From a bacterium (lineage in GTDB: Bacteria > Electryoneota > Electryoneia > Electryoneales > Electryoneaceae), in contig OY769902.1 of NCBI GenBank assembly GCA_963669175.1, positions 4,608,001 through 4,672,000 on the forward strand: DNA of 64,000 bases. The letters run 5' to 3'. The stretch's first letter is position 1, and each line of letters begins with the position of its first letter. The translations under genes were made by a program, and so were the position numbers. The notes under the pieces were generated by a model. The model was not told the DNA's origin and ran no database searches. It worked only from the letters and a program-made list of their open reading frames with translations. Of this stretch, positions 21,591 through 58,334 are shown piece after piece.

Positions 21591-21841
21591 TTCTTCTGGT
21601 AGAGTCCAGTCCTGATTCTGGTTGCCACTCGGCGAAAAACCTCCTTATGATCAACCACATTACACTCATGCGCTATTCAGGCATCTGACAACCGGCGCCT
21701 CCCTTTGTGAGAAAAGGACCGAATATACATTACAAATCTCTTCCCTATCCCCAGGAGTATACAGGTTGAAAAATGATTCAGAAGGATATAGTTTATGTAA
21801 CTGAATATGATTTGCTTTGAGACTTGGGCGTGAGGATACAT

Positions 21842-24800
21842 ATGCGCGGGCTGACTCTGAAGATTGTCTTTTTCTTTTTCCTCCTCACAGGTAGTATAAA
21901 AGCTGAAACGATGGTTTCAGGAGCTATAAGCGGCATATGGAATGTCGCTGGCAGTCCCTATATTCTTACCGGTGATACGGTATACGTTCCTGCTGATTCT
22001 GCACTTACCATCATGCCAGGGGTGCAAATAGAGTTTTCTATTTGCCGGTGTTTTTTAGTATATGGCCACCTCACTGCTTCGGGACAACCTGACCAGGAAA
22101 TTATCTGGAATTTCGAGAATGATACTACTTTCACATCCGCACTGGAGTTCTCTTCTTCCACGCCGGACACCAACCAGCTCTCTTTCTGCCGTTTTATAAA
22201 TGGTGGTCGAATACTTGGCAAGGGCGAAAATGAATGTAATGTTTCCATAGAAAATTCTACCTTCGACGAGTTGGGATCAACAGTACACATTTCTTCCAAC
22301 GACAACACGAGTTTACGAATTAGCAATTGCAATTTACGCTATGGCACATTTTATTTATCATCAATTTTTAACGGCTCCTTATCCTTGATAAATAATATTA
22401 CTCAAGGATCTTACGATTCTCTTTCAATATTCATTACTTCCCACTACAATAGCCAGCTTCTTGTGCATAACAACAACTTCTACGTAGGCCAGATAACCGT
22501 TTCCTCATGTAGTAGTGGCCAAATAACTGAGAATATTGTTAATTCCATATCCCTTTTAAATTGTTCTAATATCCTAATAAACAATAATTCACTACACCAA
22601 TACTCTTTGTCAAACTCGGAAAACATATTAACAACCGATAATTTATTTCTAAATCCATTCCAGTCGGACAATATCATTATTAATCCTCTTGTTCAAATTA
22701 ATAACTCTTCTTTGGAATTTTACGATAATCATAATGTGCCTACATGTAGTTTTATAGACATGTTTTCAACTTCTAACATTTCTTACAATAGCTTTATTGG
22801 AACAATTTATTTTAGCAGTTATCATGGCCCTTTTTTCAACAATACGATTGTACTATCAGACTATTTTGACAATCTTCTTACTCAAAATATTATAACATGC
22901 GATGAATCTAGTACTCTTGATATTTGGAATACTATCATTGTTGGCAAATTGGGCGGAGCTACTTCTTGCGGAATTTCTGCCTTAGACCGCTCTAACCCTG
23001 ATATTAGAAATTGTTGCTTCTATCGATTGGACCGAGAAGTCGAGGGCGATACTTGTCTTAACTCGATTTCAGGAAATCCATACTTCGTCAACGAGGATGA
23101 ACGCGACTTTAGTTTACAGGCAATATCACCATGCATTGATTCCGGCATTCCTGTTCCTGGTCACACTGACCCGGATGGTTCAAGTACGGATATTGGCGCT
23201 TTCCCGTTTGACCATACACAAGACCATTCTCCCGTTTTGGTTTCCAGAAAAAAAGTTCCTGCGATCAAGAGCGAGCTATTCCGCTATACTGCTGTTGCTT
23301 CAGATGATGCCGAAGCGCTACAGATAGAGTTCGCACAATATCCCATCTGGCTGCAACCGGAGGTCTATGCATCCGAACTGGACGCTGTTATTGACTCAGC
23401 CGTTATCAGCGGAATTGTGCCTAATAACGCTACTGACTGCAGCATACTGGTAACCATAACCTCAAGTGACACTGAGTCGGTTCAATGTTGGGTTGATCTG
23501 CGAATTTTTGAAGATGAATTGGTCGGCCCTCTGTCAGGCTATCTCCCATGTGCTGATGCTCCGTACTACCTTGCCGGTCCCGCCTGGATCTCGCAATACG
23601 CGACGTTTGAGATTGAAGCAGGAACTCGAATTGAAGTTGCTGAAACAGACAATCTTACTTCCCCTGCTGCGATTTCCTGTTATGGCAACTTGCTTTTCGA
23701 TTGCTCTTCTACAGACAGTATTGTGTTTTGTAGTTTTGCGGACAATGCAGATATCAAGGCTTGGAATGGAATATCTTTTCACAATCAGAGTGCTTTATCA
23801 ATTAGGAATCTTGTAATCAAAGATGCTTCACTTGGCCTCTCTATCTCTTCAGATAGACGAGTCAATATTGATAATAGCAGCTTCTCCAATTGCTTTTTAG
23901 CTGTTGACATTTCTACGCCCGATAGCGCCACATTGAACAACTGTACATTATCTTCTTGCTTTAATGGACTCTCTGTTCTATCAAATGGACCTGCTGCAGT
24001 TGCTTACTCTGCTTTTTCACACATCAGCAATACTGCTATTTCTATCAATACAGGTTCTGTATCATTCTGTTCTTTTTCAAATAATTACACCAATATCTGC
24101 ATAAATAGCGATTCTCATTCTGGTTATTACTATACTGTTTCCCTTATTAACAATTCTTTTAGATATTCTTACATGGATTTACTAATTTTTTCGGATGACT
24201 ATATTGATCATTTTGACATTTTCAACAATTTATTCACTAATTCTTATTATAATCTTAATTTATCTTGTAACAATAATACCTACAATATCTATAATAATAC
24301 TTTCTATACCCCTTCCATCGCCAATAGCGTTTGCATTAATTTTAATACATTTAATTCTATATATATTTCTAACAACATATTCTTTTACGCTAATTCCGGA
24401 TTCCAATCCATTGATTCTTTACCACCTTCAATAGTTGCTAATTATAACCTCTTCTTTCCTTTTCCTTACGATTCTTCCGCTGGTGAAAATAATATTTATG
24501 CAAATCCTCTGCTCTTTTCACCTGAATCTGGTGATTTTCATCTACTCCCTGATTCACCCTGTATTGACAGTGGCAATCCTGATCTTCCTCATGACGAAGA
24601 TGGATCGCGTTCTGATATTGGGGCTATTCCATACGATCCTGACTGGTCCCATTTTACTGATACCGAAATCCTTATTCCAACAGAAGTATCGCTTTCTCTA
24701 TACCCCAACCCTTTTAATGACACTTCTTCTTTATGTTTATACCTTCCTTACAACGCCACAATGACTTATAGTATATATAACATATTAGGTCAAATCGTTT

Positions 24801-24955
24801 ATAGTAATATTTCCGCATCTCTTTCGCAGGGTCACCACATTATTCCTTTTGATTATTTCTCTAATCTCCCCAGTGGTATTTATTTTATCAATATTCATAT
24901 TGTTCACGAAGGTTCTTCCTATTCCAAATGCCTGAAAGCAGTCTACACAAGGTAG
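21842..24955 (+). CDS. Secreted right-handed parallel beta-helix protein with T9SS-type CTD
   Basis: SGIWNVAGSPY N-terminus; Asn/Ser-rich beta-helix repeats; two SPCIDSG..D.DGS..DIGA modules; YPNPFN; largely AT-rich. Confidence 0.8.
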   Translation: MRGLTLKIVFFFFLLTGSIKAETMVSGAISGIWNVAGSPYILTGDTVYVPADSALTIMPGVQIEFSICRCFLVYGHLTASGQPDQEIIWNFENDTTFTSALEFSSSTPDTNQLSFCRFINGGRILGKGENECNVSIENSTFDELGSTVHISSNDNTSLRISNCNLRYGTFYLSSIFNGSLSLINNITQGSYDSLSIFITSHYNSQLLVHNNNFYVGQITVSSCSSGQITENIVNSISLLNCSNILINNNSLHQYSLSNSENILTTDNLFLNPFQSDNIIINPLVQINNSSLEFYDNHNVPTCSFIDMFSTSNISYNSFIGTIYFSSYHGPFFNNTIVLSDYFDNLLTQNIITCDESSTLDIWNTIIVGKLGGATSCGISALDRSNPDIRNCCFYRLDREVEGDTCLNSISGNPYFVNEDERDFSLQAISPCIDSGIPVPGHTDPDGSSTDIGAFPFDHTQDHSPVLVSRKKVPAIKSELFRYTAVASDDAEALQIEFAQYPIWLQPEVYASELDAVIDSAVISGIVPNNATDCSILVTITSSDTESVQCWVDLRIFEDELVGPLSGYLPCADAPYYLAGPAWISQYATFEIEAGTRIEVAETDNLTSPAAISCYGNLLFDCSSTDSIVFCSFADNADIKAWNGISFHNQSALSIRNLVIKDASLGLSISSDRRVNIDNSSFSNCFLAVDISTPDSATLNNCTLSSCFNGLSVLSNGPAAVAYSAFSHISNTAISINTGSVSFCSFSNNYTNICINSDSHSGYYYTVSLINNSFRYSYMDLLIFSDDYIDHFDIFNNLFTNSYYNLNLSCNNNTYNIYNNTFYTPSIANSVCINFNTFNSIYISNNIFFYANSGFQSIDSLPPSIVANYNLFFPFPYDSSAGENNIYANPLLFSPESGDFHLLPDSPCIDSGNPDLPHDEDGSRSDIGAIPYDPDWSHFTDTEILIPTEVSLSLYPNPFNDTSSLCLYLPYNATMTYSIYNILGQIVYSNISASLSQGHHIIPFDYFSNLPSGIYFINIHIVHEGSSYSKCLKAVYTR

Positions 24956-25311: not shown

Positions 25312-26614
25312 CACTGCTGTCCGGTAGGTTATCACGATTTCGTGTAACTATCCCGGAGACTTTATAATAATAAAGACTTGCATCACAAGGTGCCGTTGGT
25401 AAGATTGAGTTTGCACACACATTCTCATCAACGGAGGATGCAAGTCATGGCTCAATCTACAACCGTATTGATGCAGATACAAAAGCTTGTACCCAACGAG
25501 CTCTTTGACAAGCTTGCCACGAAGTATCATGTTGATAAATATGCCTCTGTGTTTACGGCATCCACCCATTTTGCGGTTCTGATGTTCGCACAGTTGGCGG
25601 GATTGAAGTCGACACGCGATATTCAGCATGCAACGGCATCCCTGTTCTCAATGGACCCCTTGGTCAATGTAAAGAAGTCGACCCTGGCAGAAGCGAACAA
25701 GCGGATTAACTGGCGATTTTACTACGAACTGTTTCAGGCATTATTCGCCCTTTTCTGTGACAGGTTTTCCAAGCATGATTTTCCCGTTCCCGGTAAACTT
25801 CTTTCGCTTGACAGCACGCTGATTCCGGTATGCCTGGAACGGTTGCCCTGGGCAAAATACCGCACAACAAAAGGTGCTCTGAAACTGCACACCCTACTGG
25901 ATCATGACGGGCTTATTCCACAAGACATTGTCATCACCGACGGCAAGGTCAGCGATATCGGGGCGGCGCGAACCATGCCCATTACGTCAGGCACAACCTA
26001 TCTGGTTGACCGTGGCTACTTCGACAGCGCCTGGTTTGCCAGGATCAATCGCAACCAGGCCTTTTTCGTCACACGCATGAAAAGCAACGTCGGCTTTGAA
26101 TGGACCGAAAAACGAAAGGTGGAAGCCGGAACAGGTGTCCGTGGTGACTGGATTGGTCATTTTGACGGAACCCCGGCAGACCACTATCCTGATCCCTTGC
26201 GCCTGGTACACTTCACCGATCCGGAAACAAAAAAGGAATTGTGGTTTCTGACAAACTTGTTGGAAATAGACGCGTTGACCATTGCGCAGCTCTACAAGCA
26301 ACGCTGGCAGATTGAACTGTTCTTCAAATGGGTGAAACAGAACCTGAAAATCAAGTCTTTTCTGGGGACATCCGAAAATGCAGTGATGTCGCAAATCTGG
26401 GTTGCCATGATCGTCTTTCTCCTGCTAAGAGTGTTGCAAAAGAACGCCGACGAGGCAATCACTACTCATCAACTCTTGGTATTTATCAGCACACATCTGC
26501 TGATCTGTATCCCTGTAGCCAAAGCGTGGCAAGACTTTCAAAGAACAAGCGATATCGAAAAACAAAAACGAAAACAGCAATCAAGAACAATGCTCAATTA
26601 ACCGGACAGCAGTG
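25312..26614 (+). mobile_element. IS4-family insertion sequence
   Basis: Perfect 14-bp TIR cactgctgtccggt/accggacagcagtg; 9-bp TSD attgttggt at 25303-25311 and 26615-26623. Confidence 0.95.
25447..26601 (+). CDS. IS4-family DDE transposase
   Basis: LDSTLI, KLHTLLD, DRGYFD, YKQRWQIELFFKWVKQ signature; GGAGG RBS. Confidence 0.95.
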   Translation: MAQSTTVLMQIQKLVPNELFDKLATKYHVDKYASVFTASTHFAVLMFAQLAGLKSTRDIQHATASLFSMDPLVNVKKSTLAEANKRINWRFYYELFQALFALFCDRFSKHDFPVPGKLLSLDSTLIPVCLERLPWAKYRTTKGALKLHTLLDHDGLIPQDIVITDGKVSDIGAARTMPITSGTTYLVDRGYFDSAWFARINRNQAFFVTRMKSNVGFEWTEKRKVEAGTGVRGDWIGHFDGTPADHYPDPLRLVHFTDPETKKELWFLTNLLEIDALTIAQLYKQRWQIELFFKWVKQNLKIKSFLGTSENAVMSQIWVAMIVFLLLRVLQKNADEAITTHQLLVFISTHLLICIPVAKAWQDFQRTSDIEKQKRKQQSRTMLN

Positions 26615-29531
26615 ATTGTTGGTAATACTAATAACAGTATAACAATTTCTTCTTATCGTAATATGTCTGAAGATCTTTATAATGATCCAAATTTCCCTAC
26701 CGATTTGTTGAACGATGATCAGAACAGCCCATATTATCCTTACCCAGATCCCCCTTCCGGTACTGAAGAATTGCAACTAATTTCTCGTTCTACTCATGCA
26801 AACACTGCCTTGGAATATACACATGTTAGTTATTTTATGGATGGCATTATTGCTTGGGATAATATGCCTATATATCATAACACTTTTGATAACTGCTATT
26901 CGTCAGCTATAACTTTACAAGCTGAATATTGCGCTTCTTCTAATGACCACACACAACACAATATTATCAATGATTGTTATAATGGCATTGTTATATCCTA
27001 TGCCAACACTTCTAATCTAGCTATTGTTTCTAACAATACCATTAACAGTTCTACACATGGTATTTACATATGTTCATCAAATGGTTGTCAAATTTACAAT
27101 AATATTATATATGATTGCAACAAAGCTTTCTATTTTTATTATTCTAGCACAATACAAACTATAGCTAACAATCACATTGAATCTTGTAATTATGGTTTTT
27201 ACAACTGCAATAGCAATAATAACAATACACCATGCTTTTGCAATAATAATCTTATAGATATTAACAATACTGCTTTTTATTCTTATGGCACACAAATATC
27301 AGGTACTGATTTCATTTTAAACAATCATGTTTCTAATGCCTATTCTTTATCATATAATGTTACTACAGGAACACTTTTAACAGATTGTGCTTTATTATTC
27401 GGTGACAGTGAATATCATTTATTACATAACAGTCCTTTAGTAGATGCTGGTTGTAATCCAGGTGATAATCCTTATGTTGATTGTGATCTTTATGGAACAG
27501 CACCTGATATTGGCATATATGGTGGTCCTTACGCTGAAAACCATATATTATGTTTAGGTGCTAATTCGGGTTCTTTCCAAATAGGTGACCATTCTCCCTA
27601 TCGGATAACAGAAAATATAACTGTTCCTGCTGGTCAATCTTATTCAATCACTAGTAGCAATTCCGCTAATTGCATTATTGATATCGTTGATAATGTTATT
27701 ATAGATGTACTAGGCACATTCAATATTTCAAGTTCAACTAGTACACCTATGTCAATTACAATTGGCAAGGATGTGACTATTCATGTTTCTGGTACATTAA
27801 ATATTTTAGGTAATGCGACTAATCCAGTTTCTATTGTAAATGAAGATGCTTTATGGAGTGGTATTAATTATGATGGCAACTCTAATGCTAGTCAAATAGC
27901 ACATTCTTATATTGAAGGTTTTAAATCGCTAACAGTAACTAACAGCCACACATTAAATGTATCATATACATCCATCAGCAACTGTGGTTCTTCAAGTTCC
28001 GCAGCATTAATCATTAGCAAGGGTGGGCTATATAATCATATTCATGGTGGTCTAGTATCGAATGGCCCTGGAATAAAGGTTATGGACTCACAATCGAGGA
28101 TTTATTTGACAGATATTATTGCTAATGGATCAGTATCATCCACGATAGAAGTATATAAGGGATATGCCAATCTCAACAGTTGCACTATATGCGATAATAC
28201 TGATTCATATGGGTTAGCGATGCATAATTGTTCTACTGGTTCGATAAAAGGAACGACATTTAGCAATAATAAAATTGGTATATTGTTAGATAATAGCATT
28301 CCTATATTTAGAGAGGAAAATGTTGTTGAATATAATATTGAGAATGGAATAATGCTAATAAATGGAAGTAATATTGCAATGGGACACTCATTAAATCCTT
28401 TGTTTGGTAATGTATTTGGCGATAATGGAAGTACTGGATCAAGTTCAAAGAACGCTGACATTTTGTTGAATGGGGCAGTACCTTATCTTGCAAATATGCA
28501 CAATGATATTGTTGATAATCGTGGGGCCAGCAACCAATACTTAATCTATAATGCGCAACCACCTTCTACTCCACTAGACATATCTTACAATTATTTATCA
28601 ACTTATCCACCAGCTCCATTATCTCGATTTTTTCCACTAGGTGCCTTTGTCTATACGAATGGTGATGCTGTCAGAAACTTCCCGGGATATACATATTTGT
28701 CTGTTGATGATCTTGCTCTCGCTGCATCTTTAGAGGACAATGGCGAGTTCAGTGATGCAGCAGATGTATATCTGGACATCGTATACACTGAAGAAATTCC
28801 TTCTGCTCTAAGTGCCTGGGTACGGTGTTGTTTTTCTGCCGGGATAGAGACTGAGAATATTGTAAATGAACTAAATGCGTGGCTAGGAGATGATATCTAT
28901 GGAAAGACAGCATTTTGGTTGAAAATTTCTGTATTAAACCATGATAATAGCTACGAGGAATCGATAACCATTCTTGAAGACTATATTATGCAAGCTGAAA
29001 CCGAGAATGATTCATTGATGGGGCTATATGAAGAATTAATAACTTATTATCAAATGATGACATATAATGAAGATTTTGGTAACTTAGAAAAAACAGTCCC
29101 TGGAAATAATCCTGCGTACCAAGTAGGTCAGATTTCCTACGCTGTTCCTCGCAGTCAAGCAGATTTTGACCAGAAAGAAGAAGACCTTCTGGCCCAAATG
29201 CATCAGAAGCTAAGTACTTCCATAAATGAGGACAACCTTCTTCCCAAAAAATACTGTCTGCGCCAAAACTATCCTAATCCCTTTAATCCAACAACAACTC
29301 TGAGTTTTGATCTAGTTCACCCAGAAACGGTCAAATTGTCTGTGTACAACATTATGGGGCAGGAAGTTGCACAACTTCTTGATTGTTCCTTGCAAGCTGG
29401 TTCACACAGTATAAACTTTGATGCAAGTAATCTTGCTAGTGGATTGTATTTTTATCGAATTGAAGCAGGTTCATTTATTGATATGAAAAGAATGGTTCTT
29501 GTGAAATAGATTTTTCGAAAAGCAAGAATAG

Positions 29532-29648: not shown

Positions 29649-31355
29649 ATGTCATCGTCGATGAATCAGCTCCTGGCGGCAGCGCGTGGCGAGCTGGAAG
29701 TGGACTTGCTACTCACGGGTGGAAGTGTGCTGCACGTCCATTCCGGTGAAATCCTGCCCACCGACCTGGCGATCTATGATGGGCGAGTTGTCGGGCATGG
29801 TCCGCGTCCAGCCAAACGAACCCTGGACCTGAAAGGGGCTACGGTTGTTCCGGGGCTGATTGATGTCCATTTCCACATCGAAAGTTCCATGCTTACCCCG
29901 GCACGGTTGGCGGAAATCCTGTTGACACAGGGCACGACAACCGTAGTCGCCGATCCTCATGAGATAGCCAATGTCCTGGGCAAGGATGGTGTCCGCTGGA
30001 TGCATGACGCGACCGAGCACCTCCCGTTGGCGTATCGCTTCTGGCTGCCTTCCTGTGTCCCGGCGACTCACCTGGAAACATCAGGCGCAACCCTGAACGC
30101 GGAAGATCTGCGTGAGCTTTCCTTCATGCCGCGCATGGTCGGACTGGGTGAAATGATGAATGTGCCGGGTGTGATCCATGGCGATGAGGCGGTCCATGCC
30201 AAGCTGGACATGGCACTGCGTCGCACCGGCTTCCCCATTGACGGCCACGCTCCCGGCTTTTCCGGCCCCAACCTGGATGCCTACCTGCTGGCGGGTGTGG
30301 AAGCTGATCATGAATCCTCAGAGCTGCAAGAAGCGCGTGAAAAGCTGCGCAAAAGCATGTGGGCGTTGATTCGAGAAGGGACTGCGGCACGTAACCTGCA
30401 TGACCTGTTCCCGCTGATCAATGAGAAAACCTGGCAGCATATCGCGTTTGTGCTGGATGATCGCCATGTGGACGATCTGCTGGATCGCGGCAGCCTGAAC
30501 AGCATGATCAAGCAGGCGATTCGTTATGGCCTGGACCCGGTTACCGCAATACGGCTCGCCACTCTGACCCCGGCCATGCGTATGGGCTGGAAAACACGTG
30601 GGCACCTTGGACCGGGCGCGGTTGCGGACTTTATTGTGCTGCATGACCTGGAATCATTCGGTATACGGCATGTGTTCACCAATGGCAAGCAGGTTGTCGA
30701 ACACGGACACCTGTGCGAATCCATGCCCAGCTACCCGGCTCCGGCTCCCTCGTTTCACCTGGAAAGCCCTTCTGCGGACGCTTTCATCATATCTGGCGCC
30801 AACGAAGAGGTGCGAACGATAGCCGTCATCCCGGACCAGATCATCACCAAGATGGTTATGATGAGCCCACGTGTGCGTCACGATACTCTTCACGCCGATC
30901 CGCAAACCGATCTGGCCAAGCTGGCCGTTCTGGAACGTCACCACGGAACCGGCAACATCGGACTCGGCTTCGTTCACGGTCTGGGCTTGAAACGTGGGGC
31001 TATCGCATCCAGCATTGCCCACGACAGCCATAACCTGGTCGTTGCGGGGATGGATGACACCTCCATGGCCGTGGCAGCCGATGCGGTCATTCAGGCTGGC
31101 GGTGGATTGGCCGTAGCCGACGGAGAACGTATGGTTGAAGTCCTCCCCCTCCCCGTGGCTGGACTTATGAGCGATGACAACCCCATCGAGGTCTCTTTGC
31201 ACCTGAAGCACCTGGTTAAACTGGCCAAGGATATGGGCACGGTCTACGATCCGTTCATGAGCTTGAGTTTCCTGGCGCTGCCTGTGATCCCCGAAATAAG
31301 ACTGACTGATAAAGGTCTGGTGGATGTGGGGAAATTCGATTTTGTGGCGCTGTAG
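29649..31355 (+). CDS. ade: Adenine deaminase
   Basis: PGLIDVHFHIESS, ADPHEIANV, GLGEMMN, DGHAP, DHE, AHDSHN, LALPVIPE. Confidence 0.93.
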   Translation: MSSSMNQLLAAARGELEVDLLLTGGSVLHVHSGEILPTDLAIYDGRVVGHGPRPAKRTLDLKGATVVPGLIDVHFHIESSMLTPARLAEILLTQGTTTVVADPHEIANVLGKDGVRWMHDATEHLPLAYRFWLPSCVPATHLETSGATLNAEDLRELSFMPRMVGLGEMMNVPGVIHGDEAVHAKLDMALRRTGFPIDGHAPGFSGPNLDAYLLAGVEADHESSELQEAREKLRKSMWALIREGTAARNLHDLFPLINEKTWQHIAFVLDDRHVDDLLDRGSLNSMIKQAIRYGLDPVTAIRLATLTPAMRMGWKTRGHLGPGAVADFIVLHDLESFGIRHVFTNGKQVVEHGHLCESMPSYPAPAPSFHLESPSADAFIISGANEEVRTIAVIPDQIITKMVMMSPRVRHDTLHADPQTDLAKLAVLERHHGTGNIGLGFVHGLGLKRGAIASSIAHDSHNLVVAGMDDTSMAVAADAVIQAGGGLAVADGERMVEVLPLPVAGLMSDDNPIEVSLHLKHLVKLAKDMGTVYDPFMSLSFLALPVIPEIRLTDKGLVDVGKFDFVAL

Positions 31356-31460
31356 TGCAGCTTTTTCCGACCATTCTTCAAGAATCTGCCACCTCGAAGA
31401 GGTGACACTTGAGTAGCGCGGTGCGTAAGCGCTGTCTCTTACTCACATCTTCGTGTTTCT

Positions 31461-31765
31461 GCCACCCCGTGGGGGTGGGATATTTTAGCGTAGGGTAGGC
31501 GCTGTCTGTTTAGCGCCTACCCTACGAAAAAGATCAAACCTCATATCAACCCTGAAAGGGTTGCATAAAGTATAATTGATACCCAATTGATTTATAAAGG
31601 ATATAAATTACGTTATTACCTGTAATAATTGAATAAACTAATATTGACTGCTCATTATGCAACCCTTCCAGGGTTGATTGTTCGTTAGAAATCCTGACAT
31701 AGTGTACAGGCCAAACAGACGGCCTGTACACTATGCTAAAATAGGGAATCCCGCCGGGATTCTAA
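31461..31765. repeat. Inverted composite palindromic element (REP/REPIN-like) with no transposase
   Basis: 15-bp perfect hairpins at 31489-526 and 31698-735 with mutually reverse-complementary loops; internal CAACCCTGAAAGGGTTG and CAACCCTTCCAGGGTTG. Confidence 0.7.
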
Positions 31766-32253
31766 AAATGCGATGTCCACAATCCTTTTGCTGATAAAGC
31801 TTTCAGAGGATGTGGGTAAGAGACAGTGCGTAAGCGCCGGGGAAACAATCATCCCCCTCATTCCGATCCTGAAGGGATCGCACAACCCCTGATTAAGGTT
31901 TGTCCCCTTTGGGCCAGGCTTGGGTGAAGCTACTTTTTCCAGGGGCGGACAACCTGCGCTATTCAAACAGCCCACCTTCACTGGACACAAATGCGGCCAA
32001 AGGCTCGCAGACATTCTGGCGGACTGATCCACCCCGCCTTGTGAAAACTTTCGCCAACCTAAAAAGGCTCTCGCCACCACTCCTGCCAGCAACTGTATCA
32101 TCACGGAGTCATGTTTCATAATATTTTGAAATTTGGTTTCACAATGGGCTCCTCGGGCCCATTTTGCCTATCCCCCTAGTATTGCATGCCCTATACCCGT
32201 GTGTTAGAATTCAGTGAGATAACCGGACTTATCTGCTTTGCTGGATAGTAGAC

Positions 32254-32313
32254 TTGCAGATAGACAATGGATAAGAGTATAATTTCGGTCTTGTTATGTG
32301 AAAAGTTTCGCGA
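32254..32313 (+). promoter_or_regulatory. Possible sigma70 promoter followed by a Rex-like operator
   Basis: TTGCAG-18 nt-TATAAT; atgtgaa-aagt-ttcgcga at 32296-313 resembles TTGTGAA-N4-TTCACAA. Confidence 0.4.
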
Positions 32314-32400
32314 TAACTTTGTTGTATTCAAAGGAAAAATGCCCTTATTTACAAGAAAAGACATGGGTGAATTTTGAAACATCAATTCGGGAGATTGGGT

Positions 32401-33777
32401 ATGCATGCCTATCGGTCGGTAACGATTTTATCGGCGATCATGGCGCTGTTTGCCTTGGGGTATTTCATCGGGTGTTCGGAGGAGGATGACAATCCGACTG
32501 ACGTAGACCCGACCGATACCACCGGGTATCACGCGCTCAGTGAGGCGTCCTGCGCAGGGTGCCACACGAACGAAGCCATGTTGAAGGCAACGGTCGAAGA
32601 GGACAGCGATGACACGCCGCCCTCTTCGGGCGAGGGCTGAGGCGGCAGTGTACCCGAGCTGGAAGCTTGGGAAAAAGTATTTATCGGTGATGATGGCGGT
32701 GAAATGTTCCTGGCAGATGTACATGGCGCCCAGGGATGTGTTGCCTGCCACAGCGGGCAGGATGGTGAGCTGACCAAGGCGGACGCCCATGAAGGCATGG
32801 TGAAGGATCCTTCGGTGGCGTACGAGGAAACCTGCGGCGCGTGTCATCCGGGAATAGCCTCGAACTTTGCCACCAGTTTGCATAGTTCTTTTCACGGCTA
32901 CGAAACCCTGTTTGAGGCTCGTTCCGGCATCTCTTTCGAATCCCATCCGGAAATCGAAGAAGAGTTCGCCAATGAGTGCGGAGCGTGTCATACAACATGT
33001 GGTGAATGTCATGTAAGCCGTCCGCGTAGTGTAGAAGGCGGCCTGGTGCAGGGGCACCGGTTCATGCCGGTTCCGAGCCAGACGAATCAGTGTACCGCAT
33101 GCCATGGATCACGTGTCGGTGAGGAATACCTGGGCCAGCGTGATGGGTATGCCGCGGATGCACACTATGTCCCCATGGGCAAGAACTGCATGTTCTGCCA
33201 TGACGGACATGAGATGCACGGCACCGGGACAGAAGTTGGCACTCGTTACGAGCAGGCCAATATGCCGCGTTGTGAGGACTGCCATAGCGGTGTTGAGACT
33301 ACCAACGACTACCACACTCAGCACTGGGGCCAGTTGCAGTGCCAGGTATGTCACAGCCAGGACTACAAGAATTGTAACAAGTGTCATGTGGGCGGCACCG
33401 GCGTGCGTGAACCTTCATACATCACTTTCAAGATCGGCAAGAACCCGATTCCGGATGAACGTGAATATGAATATGTCGTGTTGCGTCATATCCCGATCGC
33501 TGAAGACACCTACGAGCCCTGGGGCATAACTGATCTGCCGGATTTCGCGGTGTTGCCGAACTGGAAATATGCCAGCCCGCATAATATCAGGCGCTGGACA
33601 GCACGCACTGACACTAGTGATGGCCTCGGCTGCGCATATGTGTGTCACAATTCAGCGGAAACAGATTCAACGGCCAACTGGTTCCTGCGCCAGGCAGACA
33701 TTGATACTCTGACTGCCGCTGAGCAGGAAGCGAACAGCCCGTATATCGTTCCCGACGGCCCGCCGCCGTGGAATTGA
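32401..33777 (+). CDS. Multiheme cytochrome c lipoprotein, probable selenoprotein (UGA at 32638-40 read as Sec80)
   Basis: Lipobox FIGC; one CxxCH before the UGA, nine CxxCH plus one Cx3CH after it in the same frame; SECIS-like hairpin 12 nt after the UGA. Confidence 0.8.
32653..32671 (+). promoter_or_regulatory. Candidate bacterial SECIS element
   Basis: Stem CCCGAGC/GCUUGGG with loop UGGAA, starting 12 nt 3' of the in-frame UGA. Confidence 0.65.
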
Positions 33778-33993: not shown

Positions 33994-34989
33994 ATGAAGC
34001 TATTGAAGTCGCTTACTTGGCTGATGGTAATGTTACTGGCCATCGGGATGGTAGGCTGTTCGGACGATGATGATGATGATGGTAACCCAACAGGCCCGAC
34101 CACGAAGGATTTTTACACCGACCTGTTTGATGCAGGAAACACCTACTACACAGGTGGCACCAAGAACATCCTGGCGGACTCGGTATTTGCGCACATGAAT
34201 GCCGGTGTGGACATGTTTATCATTGACTATCGTACCGCAGGTGATTTCTCCACACTCGGTCACATTGACGGCGCCGTAAACTGGTCCATTGCTGATCTGA
34301 CAGAAAACCTGTCCCAGATCCCGGCAGACGCTGAAATTGTCAATGTCTGCTATACCGGCCAAACCGCTTCCCAGGCGACAGCAGTATTGCGTTTACTGGG
34401 TTACAATGCCTACAACCTGAAGTTTGGAATGTGCGGCTGGACGGCTGATGAAACCATCAACCTTGGCAAATGGACTACAGGTCTGACGCCGGGTGGCCAG
34501 ACATTGGTTACTGAAGCCACAACCCCTACTGCGACGTATGATGTCCCGATGATCGAAGAAGATGAAGACATGACTGTCGATGAAATCCTTCTTGATCGTC
34601 TCGCTGCTTATGTGGATGTCGCCTCTACACATAATATCAGTGCAGCATCCCTGTACGAAAACCTGAATGATGGTGACACCTCCAACGATCCGTTCATCAT
34701 CAACTACTGGTCAGAAGCCATGTATGACATGGGTCATATCCCCGGCGCTGTCCAGGGTAGCCCGATTACCACGGAGCTTCTGTCTCATATCGAAGATGGC
34801 CAGCAGGTTGTTGTCTATTGCCACACCGGTATGACTTCCAGCCAGTTAATCGTATGGCTGAACGTCCTGGGCTACGATGCTTACAGTATGCTGTTCGGCA
34901 TGAATGCGATCGATCAGGATTCTTTCGGCGATGACCTGACAACCTACCATGCACCGAGCAGTAATTTCCCGGTCGTGACCGGTAACTAA
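33994..34989 (+). CDS. Tandem rhodanese-domain lipoprotein (sulfurtransferase-like)
   Basis: Lipobox MVGC; IIDYR..GHIDGA..CYTGQTA and GHIPGA..YCHTGMTS, both domains retain the active-site Cys. Confidence 0.88.
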   Translation: MKLLKSLTWLMVMLLAIGMVGCSDDDDDDGNPTGPTTKDFYTDLFDAGNTYYTGGTKNILADSVFAHMNAGVDMFIIDYRTAGDFSTLGHIDGAVNWSIADLTENLSQIPADAEIVNVCYTGQTASQATAVLRLLGYNAYNLKFGMCGWTADETINLGKWTTGLTPGGQTLVTEATTPTATYDVPMIEEDEDMTVDEILLDRLAAYVDVASTHNISAASLYENLNDGDTSNDPFIINYWSEAMYDMGHIPGAVQGSPITTELLSHIEDGQQVVVYCHTGMTSSQLIVWLNVLGYDAYSMLFGMNAIDQDSFGDDLTTYHAPSSNFPVVTGN

Positions 34990-35032
34990 GCTGGTTCGAC
35001 ATCCCGTGTTATCGGGATCGACTTTATTTGAA

Positions 35033-35073
35033 CAGGACCACGAGCTGACAGGCTTGTGGTCTTGTTTGTTTTT
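35033..35073 (+). terminator. Intrinsic terminator
   Basis: caggaccacgagc-tgacag-gcttgtggtcttg followed by tttgttttt. Confidence 0.7.
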
Positions 35074-55676: not shown

Positions 55677-58334
55677 CTATTTCTTCAGAAACGCCCCTCG
55701 TACCGGACGATTCATATTTTCATGGTGGATCGCCTCGTCCATCTTCGCCGTATGACAGACCTTACAGTTGCCGTTGGACCCGATCGGCCAGGGCTCGCCG
55801 CCGTACTGATACGGCTGGATGTTGTCCAGGTTCTTGCCGTACGGGTTATCCTGCGCCGGATACAAGGCATGCGGGGATCCATGACAGGCCTCGCAACGAA
55901 TCTCAGCCATGCCGGTACGTCTGCGGAAGAGATCATCGAAACCGTCAACCCATTCATTGTACGCATTGGTCGCATGATCCGGCTTTTCATAATCGATATG
56001 ACAGGTCATGCAATCCGGTTCCTGTAGCCATGGTATCCGTGGATTGACCGCCTCTTTCGACTCGGCATGAGTAATCTCGAGGTTCGCCATCAGACGCCCC
56101 GCTGAAGGCTTCTCTTCCTCCTGCTTCAACAGCGCAAACGCATGTTCAGGCAACTCACCGTGACATTGCGTACACCCGATGTCCAACTGGTCATGCACAC
56201 CACGCAGGCAACGGGTAACACCGCCGGGATAGGACGGGTGGCACATGACGCAGGCGTTCATCCCTTCCAGATGCATGTAGTTTGCATGCCAGCCATGCAA
56301 TGCTGCGGATAACGACAGAACTCCATCCACTCCTTCAGCGCCGACAGCCGGGTCAGGATGGCAGCTCTGGCACAGACGCGGATTGCCGGCCATGGCGTCC
56401 TCATACAGGGTGGTTCCGTTCAAACGGTCATGCGCGGTAAGAATATTGCTCGCAGTTTCCCCGGATACCCCGGCGCCGTAATTGGTTGACCAGGGGCCGC
56501 CGTGACAGTTCAAACACCCCATTTCGGTTGAAGTCGGTGTGATAAACCCGGTTTCCGCAAGCAGTTCCCCGGTTTCCTCATCATGCGCCTGAACGGTAAA
56601 CAACGGGTAGGGATTAAAACCACCGCCGTCCGGGTAGGGCACCACTGGAATCAGGTGCGCGATAAAGTGATTCCGCCCTTCTTCCAGATCCAGTTCACCG
56701 GTCAAGCCTTTTCCGGCCAGGCCAACATTGTTCTCCAGCTCAACCCCGAAGTTCGACTTGCTGAAGTTCCAGAACTTGGAATGCTGCGAAGGATTCATAT
56801 TCTGCGCCGGGGCCGAATAGGTCAGCTTGATGCCCTCAGTCAGGATCTCAGGCGGATCACCGCGCTTGATCAACTGAGCTTCAATCGTGTTCGCCGGTGG
56901 CAGGATGACCAGGTAAGGATCACAATCGCTGATGCAGTGCATACCCAGGTCATTCCACGCCATCAGGACATACTCATTGTTATCCTTGAACTTGGGCAGT
57001 TCATCACTGGATTCAGGCGGTTTGTGCGTCGGCGGTTTGGCAACAACTTCTTTGCCGTGAAGATCACGGACGATATATGCGGCCAGGACATCACGCTCTG
57101 CATTTGTGCCTACATATGGCGGCATGAACGTCCGCACCTTGCCCTGGCCCGCCAGCGAAGCCTGCATCCCCATGTAGGTGAAATCCTTGGTCCTGACTAA
57201 CAGGTCATTCGGTCCACCCAGGGTATGACAGCTCATGCACTGCATGTAGAGCAGATCACGTCCCACAATCCCGAGTCGGTCCTTCTCTCCACCTTTAACC
57301 GGGGTAGCCCAGACCGCATCAGGAAGAATGCCGCGACGATTGTATTCGGCGACCTGATCAACCAGCATACCGTTGGAATACATGTAGTTCTGTATGATGT
57401 AGGGCTTCCGTGCGATTTCACGCATGTACTCAAAACCGCCCATCCACAAGAGGCCACAGATAGCGATTACAATTGCCAGCGCCTTGGATACCTTGGCTTG
57501 GCCTTTCAACAGGAAGAGCAATCCGGCGATAAGGATCAGTGGAGTAATCGCTGTGAAACCACCAACATAGGAAACACTTTCCGGGTTCATCTTGAATGCG
57601 GTGAAGCGCACATCCGCAGGGGTGGTCATGAGATACCAGAACCCGGTCGGAACCATCCCGATGAAGCCAACCAGCAGCCATTTCACCCCGAGACGGGACA
57701 CCTTGAAACGTGTCGCATCTTCTTTCTGCCACGCCCCGACCACAAAGGCGAATATCCCGGCAGTCATGACCGTGATGAAAGTCCGGAAGAACAACGACGC
57801 GAAATAACCGGGATTCAGGAAACCATCCCAGAAACCATGGGTGACCAGCCATTTGCCCGGCGTAAGCATGAACGACAGGATGCCGTTGATGATGAACAGG
57901 CTCAACCACGCAAACAGCGCGTAGAGAAACGCCATCACCAGGCGGTTTTTACGTGACAGCTTATCGAAGTAATAGTGGTATGCCAGCAGAGCAGCAATTT
58001 CACCTATGAAAAACACCCACTCAATCGCCCAGCCAAATACGAAGGAATGGATCAACGCGGAGGTGCCTGCCGGGGATACCAGCGCAATAGTCCACCAGAT
58101 TCCCACGCCGGACACCCCGCCGAACACCATGGTCACCAGCAGAAAAACCCAGTTGTAGCGTCGGAGGAAATCGTTCAGAATGGTGTCGTTGGTCTTGTAT
58201 GCTTTCCAGTCGGTCAGCCAGATGAACAGCCCACCGCCTACCGCAAGGTGAGAAACATACACATGTGTAATCGCTACCAGGGCAATCAGGCTGCCGCCGC
58301 CCCACTTGGTCAGTTCCCAGATCGGATAGTTCAT
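55677..58334 (-). CDS. Cytochrome bd subunit I (CydA)-like membrane domain fused to an octaheme cytochrome c
   Basis: N-terminal HVYVSH, WAIEW..F..E, EYMREIARKPY; eight CxxCH (CMSCH, CLNCH, CQSCH, CVMCH, CTQCH, CMTCH, CEACH, CKVCH); WNDLGMHC. Confidence 0.85.
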   Translation of the reverse strand: MNYPIWELTKWGGGSLIALVAITHVYVSHLAVGGGLFIWLTDWKAYKTNDTILNDFLRRYNWVFLLVTMVFGGVSGVGIWWTIALVSPAGTSALIHSFVFGWAIEWVFFIGEIAALLAYHYYFDKLSRKNRLVMAFLYALFAWLSLFIINGILSFMLTPGKWLVTHGFWDGFLNPGYFASLFFRTFITVMTAGIFAFVVGAWQKEDATRFKVSRLGVKWLLVGFIGMVPTGFWYLMTTPADVRFTAFKMNPESVSYVGGFTAITPLILIAGLLFLLKGQAKVSKALAIVIAICGLLWMGGFEYMREIARKPYIIQNYMYSNGMLVDQVAEYNRRGILPDAVWATPVKGGEKDRLGIVGRDLLYMQCMSCHTLGGPNDLLVRTKDFTYMGMQASLAGQGKVRTFMPPYVGTNAERDVLAAYIVRDLHGKEVVAKPPTHKPPESSDELPKFKDNNEYVLMAWNDLGMHCISDCDPYLVILPPANTIEAQLIKRGDPPEILTEGIKLTYSAPAQNMNPSQHSKFWNFSKSNFGVELENNVGLAGKGLTGELDLEEGRNHFIAHLIPVVPYPDGGGFNPYPLFTVQAHDEETGELLAETGFITPTSTEMGCLNCHGGPWSTNYGAGVSGETASNILTAHDRLNGTTLYEDAMAGNPRLCQSCHPDPAVGAEGVDGVLSLSAALHGWHANYMHLEGMNACVMCHPSYPGGVTRCLRGVHDQLDIGCTQCHGELPEHAFALLKQEEEKPSAGRLMANLEITHAESKEAVNPRIPWLQEPDCMTCHIDYEKPDHATNAYNEWVDGFDDLFRRRTGMAEIRCEACHGSPHALYPAQDNPYGKNLDNIQPYQYGGEPWPIGSNGNCKVCHTAKMDEAIHHENMNRPVRGAFLKK

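Follow-up and report, generated by a model that had tools for sequence, protein, structure and literature searches.

A probable selenocysteine-containing undecaheme cytochrome c lipoprotein and its tandem-rhodanese neighbour in an Electryoneota genome

Multiheme cytochromes that contain selenocysteine (Sec, U) have a described representative in MccSep, or ExtKL (GSU2937-2936), of Geobacter sulfurreducens. Its report presents it as a pentaheme, homotetrameric, periplasmic polysulfide reductase, with U325 placed in a D-G-U-P loop of a C-terminal immunoglobulin-like domain, beside a heme ligated by Cys239 (PMC13510729). To judge by the title of a reference in the same source, the MccSep gene cluster also encodes a rhodanese-like lipoprotein, ExtH (PMC13510729). 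The other system of interest here is the octaheme tetrathionate reductase of Shewanella oneidensis (PDB 1sp3; TIGR04315), of which a Sec form is listed as GenBank-annotated (PMC13188914). Together with the GSU2204 family, these two are the only cytochrome-type selenoproteins in the tables of two reviews (PMC9312934, PMC13188914). In this work, we describe a gene from a 64,000-nt stretch of contig OY769902.1 (assembly GCA_963669175.1, phylum Electryoneota), referred to below as the window. Located at 32401-33777, it almost certainly encodes a single cytochrome in which an in-frame UGA is read as Sec; the product would be a lipoprotein with eleven hemes, encoded next to a tandem rhodanese. Coordinates are positions in the window, and the cytochrome and rhodanese genes both lie on the + strand.

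One reading frame across an in-frame UGA

Two open reading frames (ORFs), 32374-32640 (88 aa) and 32704-33777 (357 aa), share one frame, and the sole stop between them is the TGA at 32638-32640. Read through from the likely start, ATG 32401, they give a protein of 458 residues, with no second stop and no frameshift across the 458 codons. Its parts follow in the order of a signal ending in FIGC, an acidic tract, CAGCH, an acidic Pro/Ser-rich linker, the Sec loop, nine CxxCH motifs and CAYVCH. The last motif reads CxxCH in some aligned homologs and CxxxCH in others, so CAYVCH most likely represents a real eleventh heme site. The Sec region is PPSSGEG-U80-GGSVPELEAWEKVF, the residues next to Sec being G-E-G-U80-G-G-SVPELEAWEKV. 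An original prediction, made from the sequence alone, had claimed two same-frame ORFs parted by this TGA only, which joined into a 458-aa protein with FIGC, CAGCH, nine further CxxCH and one CxxxCH; our check of ORFs and frame arrived at the same picture, with eleven heme sites. The terminator of the gene is itself a TGA (33775-33777), so this codon is also used as a stop here. The features of the gene are as follows:

32389-32393, + strand: Shine-Dalgarno-like GGGAG, 7 nt 5' of ATG 32401 (read from the sequence; presumed function)
32401-33777, + strand: probable single gene for a Sec-containing 11-heme lipoprotein cytochrome c, 458 residues, conserved across the TGA in 15/15 relatives
32401-32475, + strand: predicted lipoprotein signal peptide up to the lipobox FIGC (Cys25), with acidic SEEDDN next
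32551-32565, + strand: heme motif 1, CAGCH (residues 51-55), 5' of the Sec codon, invariant in alignments A1 and A2
32638-32640, + strand: UGA read as Sec (U80) in the motif G-E-G-U-G-G, on the grounds of TGA/Cys conservation and selA co-occurrence
32653-32671, + strand: hairpin CCCGAGCU-GGA-AGCUUGGG, resembling a selenocysteine insertion sequence (SECIS), 8 bp, with G in the apical loop, starting 12 nt after the UGA
32737-33648, + strand: heme motifs 2-11 (C113 to H416), invariant; the core resembles octaheme tetrathionate reductase

Pfam recognised generic multiheme domains only (Cytochrome_C7, E 5.8e-10), and no NCBIfam model came near its cut-off with the window protein. Cys25 is invariant in 48/48 aligned sequences. 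Lipidation at this residue, export and the attachment of eleven hemes are predicted from these motifs.

The conservation of the UGA was followed in two samples. When 41 related genomes were searched in six frames, 16 gave a match, one of these being a weak partial match to another cytochrome. Each of the 15 near-full-length matches (41-100% identity) contains exactly one in-frame TGA, and two of them additionally show a TAA at the edge of the match. In 15/15 cases the TGA aligns within S-G-[ED]-G-U-G-G-x-x-P-x-L-x-x-W-x-K and is preceded by the lipobox and the first heme motif. A species-level genome scan yielded at least 585 related loci; in the best 80 of these, a set that overlaps several of the 15 relatives, the codon at the Sec position was TGA in 62, TGC or TGT in 16, and neither in two (L044 and L097). 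Cys-form proteins are also present in the protein database (P0056, P0076, P0112 and P0113). According to a maximum-likelihood tree of 48 sequences, which came from a quick rather than a careful search and has an arbitrary root, the Cys label must have changed at least three times: 12 Cys rows form one clade, and two further Cys rows are nested among Sec rows. As for the two loci with neither codon, G-E-G-U-G-G is replaced by G-E-G-E-I-R-G-G in L044 (2680-2700) and by T-A-R-G-G-D-G in L097 (2665-2700); selA is still encoded in both genomes, and the nearest relative of L044 in the tree is a Sec form.

The genome that carries the window encodes the complete Sec machinery, with selA (539 bits), selB (348 bits) and selD (356 bits) all above their cut-offs and a tRNA-Sec whose 64.7 bits exceed the gathering score of 47. 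Its selD, found at C1:4678417-4679343 of the genome (locus L009), about 6.4 kb past the end of the window and about 38 kb from the cytochrome gene, has one in-frame TGA, which indicates that the selenophosphate synthetase is a selenoprotein too. We surveyed selA at 50 of the best 80 loci: each of the 18 without TGA, and 32 of the 62 with it. It scored above the cut-off in 28/32 TGA-form genomes (and was split over two contig ends in one more), in 1/16 Cys-form genomes and in 2/2 genomes with neither residue, these being counts over related and hence not independent genomes.

The hairpin at 32653-32671 may also be drawn with 7 bp and the loop UGGAA. It is present in the minimum-energy fold of the window sequence and, in some form, in 15/15 relatives. 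Since the peptide is conserved here, natural sequences were compared with synonymous recodings, a hairpin-specific score of each natural sequence being set against those of 1000 recodings of the same peptide. The score of the window hairpin was reached by 0.3% of the 1000 recodings (p 0.003). Among distinct TGA sequences, 46/68 had p<=0.05 (mean z 2.7); these hairpins have stems that start 12-17 nt from U, and GUU, GGA and GGU account for most of the loops. In the comparison group, p<=0.05 was found in 6/16 Cys sequences (mean z 1.1), at scattered positions. The hairpin occurs in two registers, with compensatory changes within each. One example couples the wobble position of a Val codon to the middle base of the codon seven residues further on (GC 10, CG 7, AU 4). 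The 17 sequences in the window's register are 100% paired, with one pair occurring as AU 11, CG 4 and UA 2. Because a hairpin in the given register was what qualified a row for these counts, such percentages are inflated, and the recoding test is the unbiased one.

Overall, four independent lines (position, Cys forms, machinery and RNA) favour UGA as Sec, and this reading is strongly supported; we hold it with high confidence that 32401-33777 is one gene. Here, too, the original prediction fared well: it had looked to homologs for a TGA or Cys in GEG-x-GG, flanked on either side by conserved sequence (15/15 relatives; 62 and 16 of the best 80 loci), to the genome for selA, selB, selD and tRNA-Sec, and to the 12th nt after the UGA for a SECIS-like hairpin, which turned out to be conserved and to show compensatory changes. 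It had also expected standard annotation to split the gene. This is indeed what happened in the source genome, whose protein record P0002 is the 357-aa downstream piece, and the record is what one would expect if the TGA terminated translation, giving a small monoheme lipoprotein and a separate 357-aa decaheme protein from ATG 32704. Such termination would also be in line with the use of TGA (33775-33777) as the gene's real stop. However, the downstream piece has no signal peptide, and the attachment of c-type hemes needs an export signal. Moreover, some of the family's highest conservation falls on the residues between the TGA and ATG 32704 (GGSVPELEAWEKV...), Cys takes the place of the stop in 16 of the best 80 loci, and the TGA form tracks selA, all of which makes termination very improbable. 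We give practically no credence to the idea that the gene is a pseudogene or that its TGA stems from a nonsense mutation or faulty sequencing of this genome, as the same TGA recurs in 62/80 independent assemblies of many phyla and in 15/15 relatives, and the frame is otherwise intact through 458 codons. A different genetic code with TGA as Trp or Gly was considered as well, and we discarded it in view of the Cys that homologs carry there, the TGA that closes the gene itself and the complete Sec machinery.

Several observations nevertheless weigh against the decoding of UGA 32638-32640 as Sec. Relatives with neither Sec nor Cys exist (loci L044 and L097; proteins P0122 and P0181), so the residue is not indispensable everywhere. 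In 3/32 TGA-form genomes, which are metagenome bins of unknown completeness, selA had no match. As to the RNA, the conserved peptide contributes part of the hairpin potential, and the 6/16 Cys forms mentioned above also have a hairpin. Folding of the 91 nt that surround the UGA showed no significant stability (z -1.43). When the energy of the whole region was compared with synonymous recodings, the signal was weak, with p<=0.05 in 12/68 TGA forms (mean z -0.84), hardly separated from the Cys forms (mean z -0.57).

Core fold and comparison with described cytochromes

An AlphaFold 2 (AF2) model built from 48 sequences had a mean predicted local distance difference test (pLDDT) score of 84.7 and a predicted template modelling (pTM) score of 0.79; the first model, from 20 sequences, was poor (pLDDT 61.4) and was not used. 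Around the Sec loop, the mean pLDDT is 63 for residues 71-80 and 85-95 for residues 81-100. In an exhaustive structural comparison, 1sp3_A came first, with Z 8.7 and a root-mean-square deviation of 4.2 A over 250 residues within model residues 100-458, and hydroxylamine oxidoreductase came next (Z 4.2). Foldseek against the PDB likewise placed 1sp3 first, at E 0.11 and a template modelling (TM) score of 0.28, with no match at E<=0.001. A sequence profile compared with 1sp3_A gave E 1.3e-7 over about 90 residues. Such values suggest that the part of the modelled protein after the Sec loop (residues ~100-458) is a remote relative of the octaheme family rather than a member of it.

Thus, octaheme tetrathionate reductase is the best match among solved structures, and it acts on a sulfur compound. 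It differs from the window protein in having eight hemes instead of eleven, and also at the N-terminus: the match begins at model residue 100, and 1sp3 has no counterpart of the extension that carries the Sec loop and the additional heme 1. With TIGR04315, the window protein gave no match at E<=1; among family members 4/48 matched, the best at E 0.0013. The catalogued Sec form of TIGR04315 has its Sec in the middle of the protein, in N-N-F-U (deep-Sep supplement), unlike the G-E-G-U-G-G of the window protein.

MccSep/ExtKL is the closest functional analogue, and the window family, as judged by sequence comparison, is not a member of its family. Both, the window protein by prediction, are exported multiheme cytochromes of the c type whose single Sec is specified by an in-frame UGA with a hairpin after it. 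Both families include Sec and Cys forms, their genes are usually annotated as two, and each is genetically linked to a rhodanese-like lipoprotein (ExtH in the case of MccSep). MccSep offers a plausible working model, namely an attack of Sec on a sulfur substrate at a heme centre. The differences are of several kinds. MccSep has five hemes and the window protein eleven; Sec resides in a C-terminal D-G-U-P loop in the former and in an N-terminal G-E-G-U-G-G loop in the latter; and MccSep is described as periplasmic and soluble, whereas the window protein is a predicted lipoprotein. In MccSep, a separate conserved Cys ligates heme 2, whereas the only other invariant non-heme Cys of the window family is the lipobox Cys25. 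In searches with the ExtKL model NF040886, the window protein had no match at E<=1 and 0/48 family members matched at E<=0.01, and sequence searches of the PDB gave no match to MccSep. These results, together with the N-terminal Gly-rich Sec loop, sustain two more claims of the original prediction, that the architecture is distinct from ExtKL and that the lone Sec has no UxxC partner. The supplement to the MccSep report has no entries under Eisenbacteria or under names beginning with Calditrich (PMC13510729). Finally, the model of a UshA-like selenoprotein, NF041198, scored 15.8 bits with the window protein against a cut-off of 275.

The rhodanese partner and a possible sulfur chemistry

Downstream of the cytochrome gene, two features complete what is probably a single transcription unit:

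33994-34989, + strand: tandem-rhodanese lipoprotein gene (Pfam Rhodanese, E 4.2e-23, two stretches)
35029-35068, + strand: terminator-like hairpin of 18 pairs with a T run, from a consensus scan, ending the two-gene unit

The rhodanese lipoprotein has the lipobox MVGC followed by SDDDDDD and retains both active-site Cys residues, C119 and C276, which are invariant in 38 sequences. A rhodanese gene lies 3' of the cytochrome gene in 15/15 relatives. In a wider survey of 78 distinct loci, 71 had a testable downstream ORF, and a rhodanese gene was adjacent in 66/71 (60 downstream and six directly upstream), in Sec and Cys forms alike. Of 11 longer representatives tested, two (P0159 and P0181) are natural fusions in which the cytochrome is joined to two rhodanese domains. 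The pair is flanked in the window by genes with no relation to it, for adenine deaminase on the upstream side and for the Der GTPase and PriA on the downstream side. Taken together, the cytochrome gene is probably co-transcribed with the rhodanese gene at 33994-34989, and the tandem rhodanese, as far as sequence and gene order can tell, is a probable sulfur-carrier partner of the cytochrome.

A parallel to such a partnership exists in Wolinella succinogenes, where Sud, a periplasmic rhodanese-type carrier, feeds the membrane-associated terminal sulfur reductase Psr (polysulfide reductase). The likeness consists in a rhodanese-type carrier feeding a reductase; the difference is that Psr is a molybdopterin enzyme, whereas we propose an all-heme selenoprotein here.

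Overall, the locus is likely best explained by one Sec-decoded gene for a membrane-anchored undecaheme cytochrome, which would act as a sulfane-sulfur enzyme with the rhodanese. In this scheme, SelB with Sec-tRNA(Sec) would bind the hairpin at 32653-32671 and decode UGA 32638-32640 as U80. The lipoprotein signal peptide would export the product, which would be lipidated at Cys25 and loaded with 11 c-type hemes to become a membrane-anchored undecaheme cytochrome. The N-terminal extension would bear heme 1 and the Gly-rich Sec loop, with residues ~100-458 forming the core. An active-site Cys of the rhodanese would capture sulfur as a persulfide and pass it to Sec80; alternatively, the selenolate might act on free polysulfide or tetrathionate. 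The Se-S adduct would then be cleaved reductively by electrons arriving via the heme chain. What we infer in this scenario is the insertion of selenium, the substrate, the way the electrons run and the transfer of sulfur from rhodanese to cytochrome. We lean, with moderate confidence, towards a molybdenum-free terminal oxidoreductase for sulfane-sulfur compounds. Polysulfide or persulfide would be its substrate, tetrathionate or thiosulfate may be, and selenite would be a secondary one. On the other side of the balance, the function rests on gene context, a moderate fold match and analogy, and no quinol-oxidising partner is encoded beside the cytochrome-rhodanese pair in the window.

It may also be that Sec is real and the substrate is not a sulfur compound. 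Nitrite or hydroxylamine, selenite or tellurite, or extracellular metals would come into question, with the rhodanese serving, for example, in selenium handling. Octaheme tetrathionate reductase is itself also said to reduce nitrite and hydroxylamine. Hydroxylamine oxidoreductase and octaheme nitrite reductase are the next folds after 1sp3 (Z 3.6-4.2), and there are weak sequence matches to NrfA. Moreover, 31/48 members weakly match the NCBIfam model ExtM, named for a selenite/tellurite reduction operon, and some relatives contain Pfam domains of the MtrC/MtrF-like kind. MccSep also reduces selenite (PMC13510729). Against such substrates, all matches to nitrite-reducing enzymes are weak, while the adjoining rhodanese in 66/71 loci and the fusions point to the transfer of sulfane sulfur or selenium. 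Neighbours at other loci, namely a YeeE/YedE-type sulfur transporter fused to a rhodanese (L085) and an ArsR-rhodanese regulator (L100), point the same way. Hence, we regard a non-sulfur substrate as an unlikely, if serious, candidate and continue to prefer a sulfane-sulfur enzyme.

A further possibility concerns the coordination of the hemes. Eight non-motif His residues are invariant, and one more is present in >=90% of sequences, compared with 11 invariant heme motifs; position 80 is the only free invariant thiol or selenol. This mismatch is the ground for a rather doubtful idea that Sec80 is the distal axial ligand of one heme, which would make it a natural His/selenocysteinate heme c that opens on substrate attack. 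The His/Cys hemes of the thiosulfate dehydrogenase TsdA are thought to open in this manner. A chalcogen heme ligand is also used by MccSep, a sulfur-reducing multiheme enzyme (PMC13510729).

Distribution, annotation and further neighbours

The family is large. In an exhaustive search of representative sequences, 1426 clusters passed E<=0.001 and 197 passed E<=1e-30; many of the matches start at profile positions 79-82, that is, at Sec or just after it. The 120 best database homologs are mostly pieces of about 300-390 aa, with 63-80% of the query covered. Such cluster counts and short records that start near Sec indicate that the family is systematically truncated in databases. The phyla, as labelled, include Calditrichota, KSB1, Eisenbacteria, Gemmatimonadota, Ignavibacteria/Bacteroidota, Chloroflexota and Planctomycetota.

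A literature search found no paper joining selenocysteine with an undecaheme cytochrome, and a search joining selenocysteine, rhodanese and multiheme returned nothing on an undecaheme Sec family. The part of the BSepDB supplement that was covered, which consists of genome lists, has no 'cytochrome' entry, and BSepDB itself may hold the family. Undecaheme Sec cytochromes thus appear to be missing from selenoprotein catalogues and annotation pipelines. We conclude that they are a new family-level variant among the Sec-containing multiheme cytochromes working with rhodaneses, one that is widespread and mis-annotated. In the window, 32401-33777 should be annotated as a single Sec-containing protein. 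If the protein is indeed a sulfur-compound reductase, it would be the second independent selenium-plus-heme, molybdenum-free sulfur enzyme after MccSep, and it would alter the way in which metagenomes from sediments and other anoxic settings are read for sulfur cycling.

At other loci of the family, recurrent extra neighbours are small multiheme cytochromes and TetR regulators. In three loci labelled as Dehalococcoidia (L113-L115), the gene downstream of the cytochrome encodes an NrfC/PsrB-like 4Fe-4S dicluster protein, a hint that the electrons may come from a membrane module that oxidises quinol; the rhodanese gene is upstream in L113 and L114, and none was found next door in L115.

Both lipoproteins of the window carry an acidic run directly after the lipobox Cys, Cys-SEEDDN in the cytochrome (32476-32493) and Cys-SDDDDDD in the rhodanese (34060-34080). 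Such a run resembles the lipoprotein surface-export signal of Bacteroidota. On account of these tracts, the cytochrome and the rhodanese may be displayed on the cell surface, where they would work on insoluble sulfur.

Upstream of the cytochrome gene, a gap of about 1 kb (31356-32400) without a convincing ORF separates it from the adenine deaminase gene, and several terminator-like hairpins lie within 31349-31504. Some relatives have a gene for a small c554-like multiheme cytochrome upstream; a remnant of such a gene was sought in 31356-32400 and not found there. The c554-like query gave weak tblastn matches at about 55860-56600 on the minus strand (E 0.007-0.2), which suggests another multiheme cytochrome gene at that place. 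Elsewhere in the window, two large secreted proteins (21824-24955 and 26612-29509) bear Por_Secre_tail, the sorting domain of type IX secretion; one of them also has NosD/beta-helix repeats, and a DDE transposase gene (25378-26601) lies between the two.

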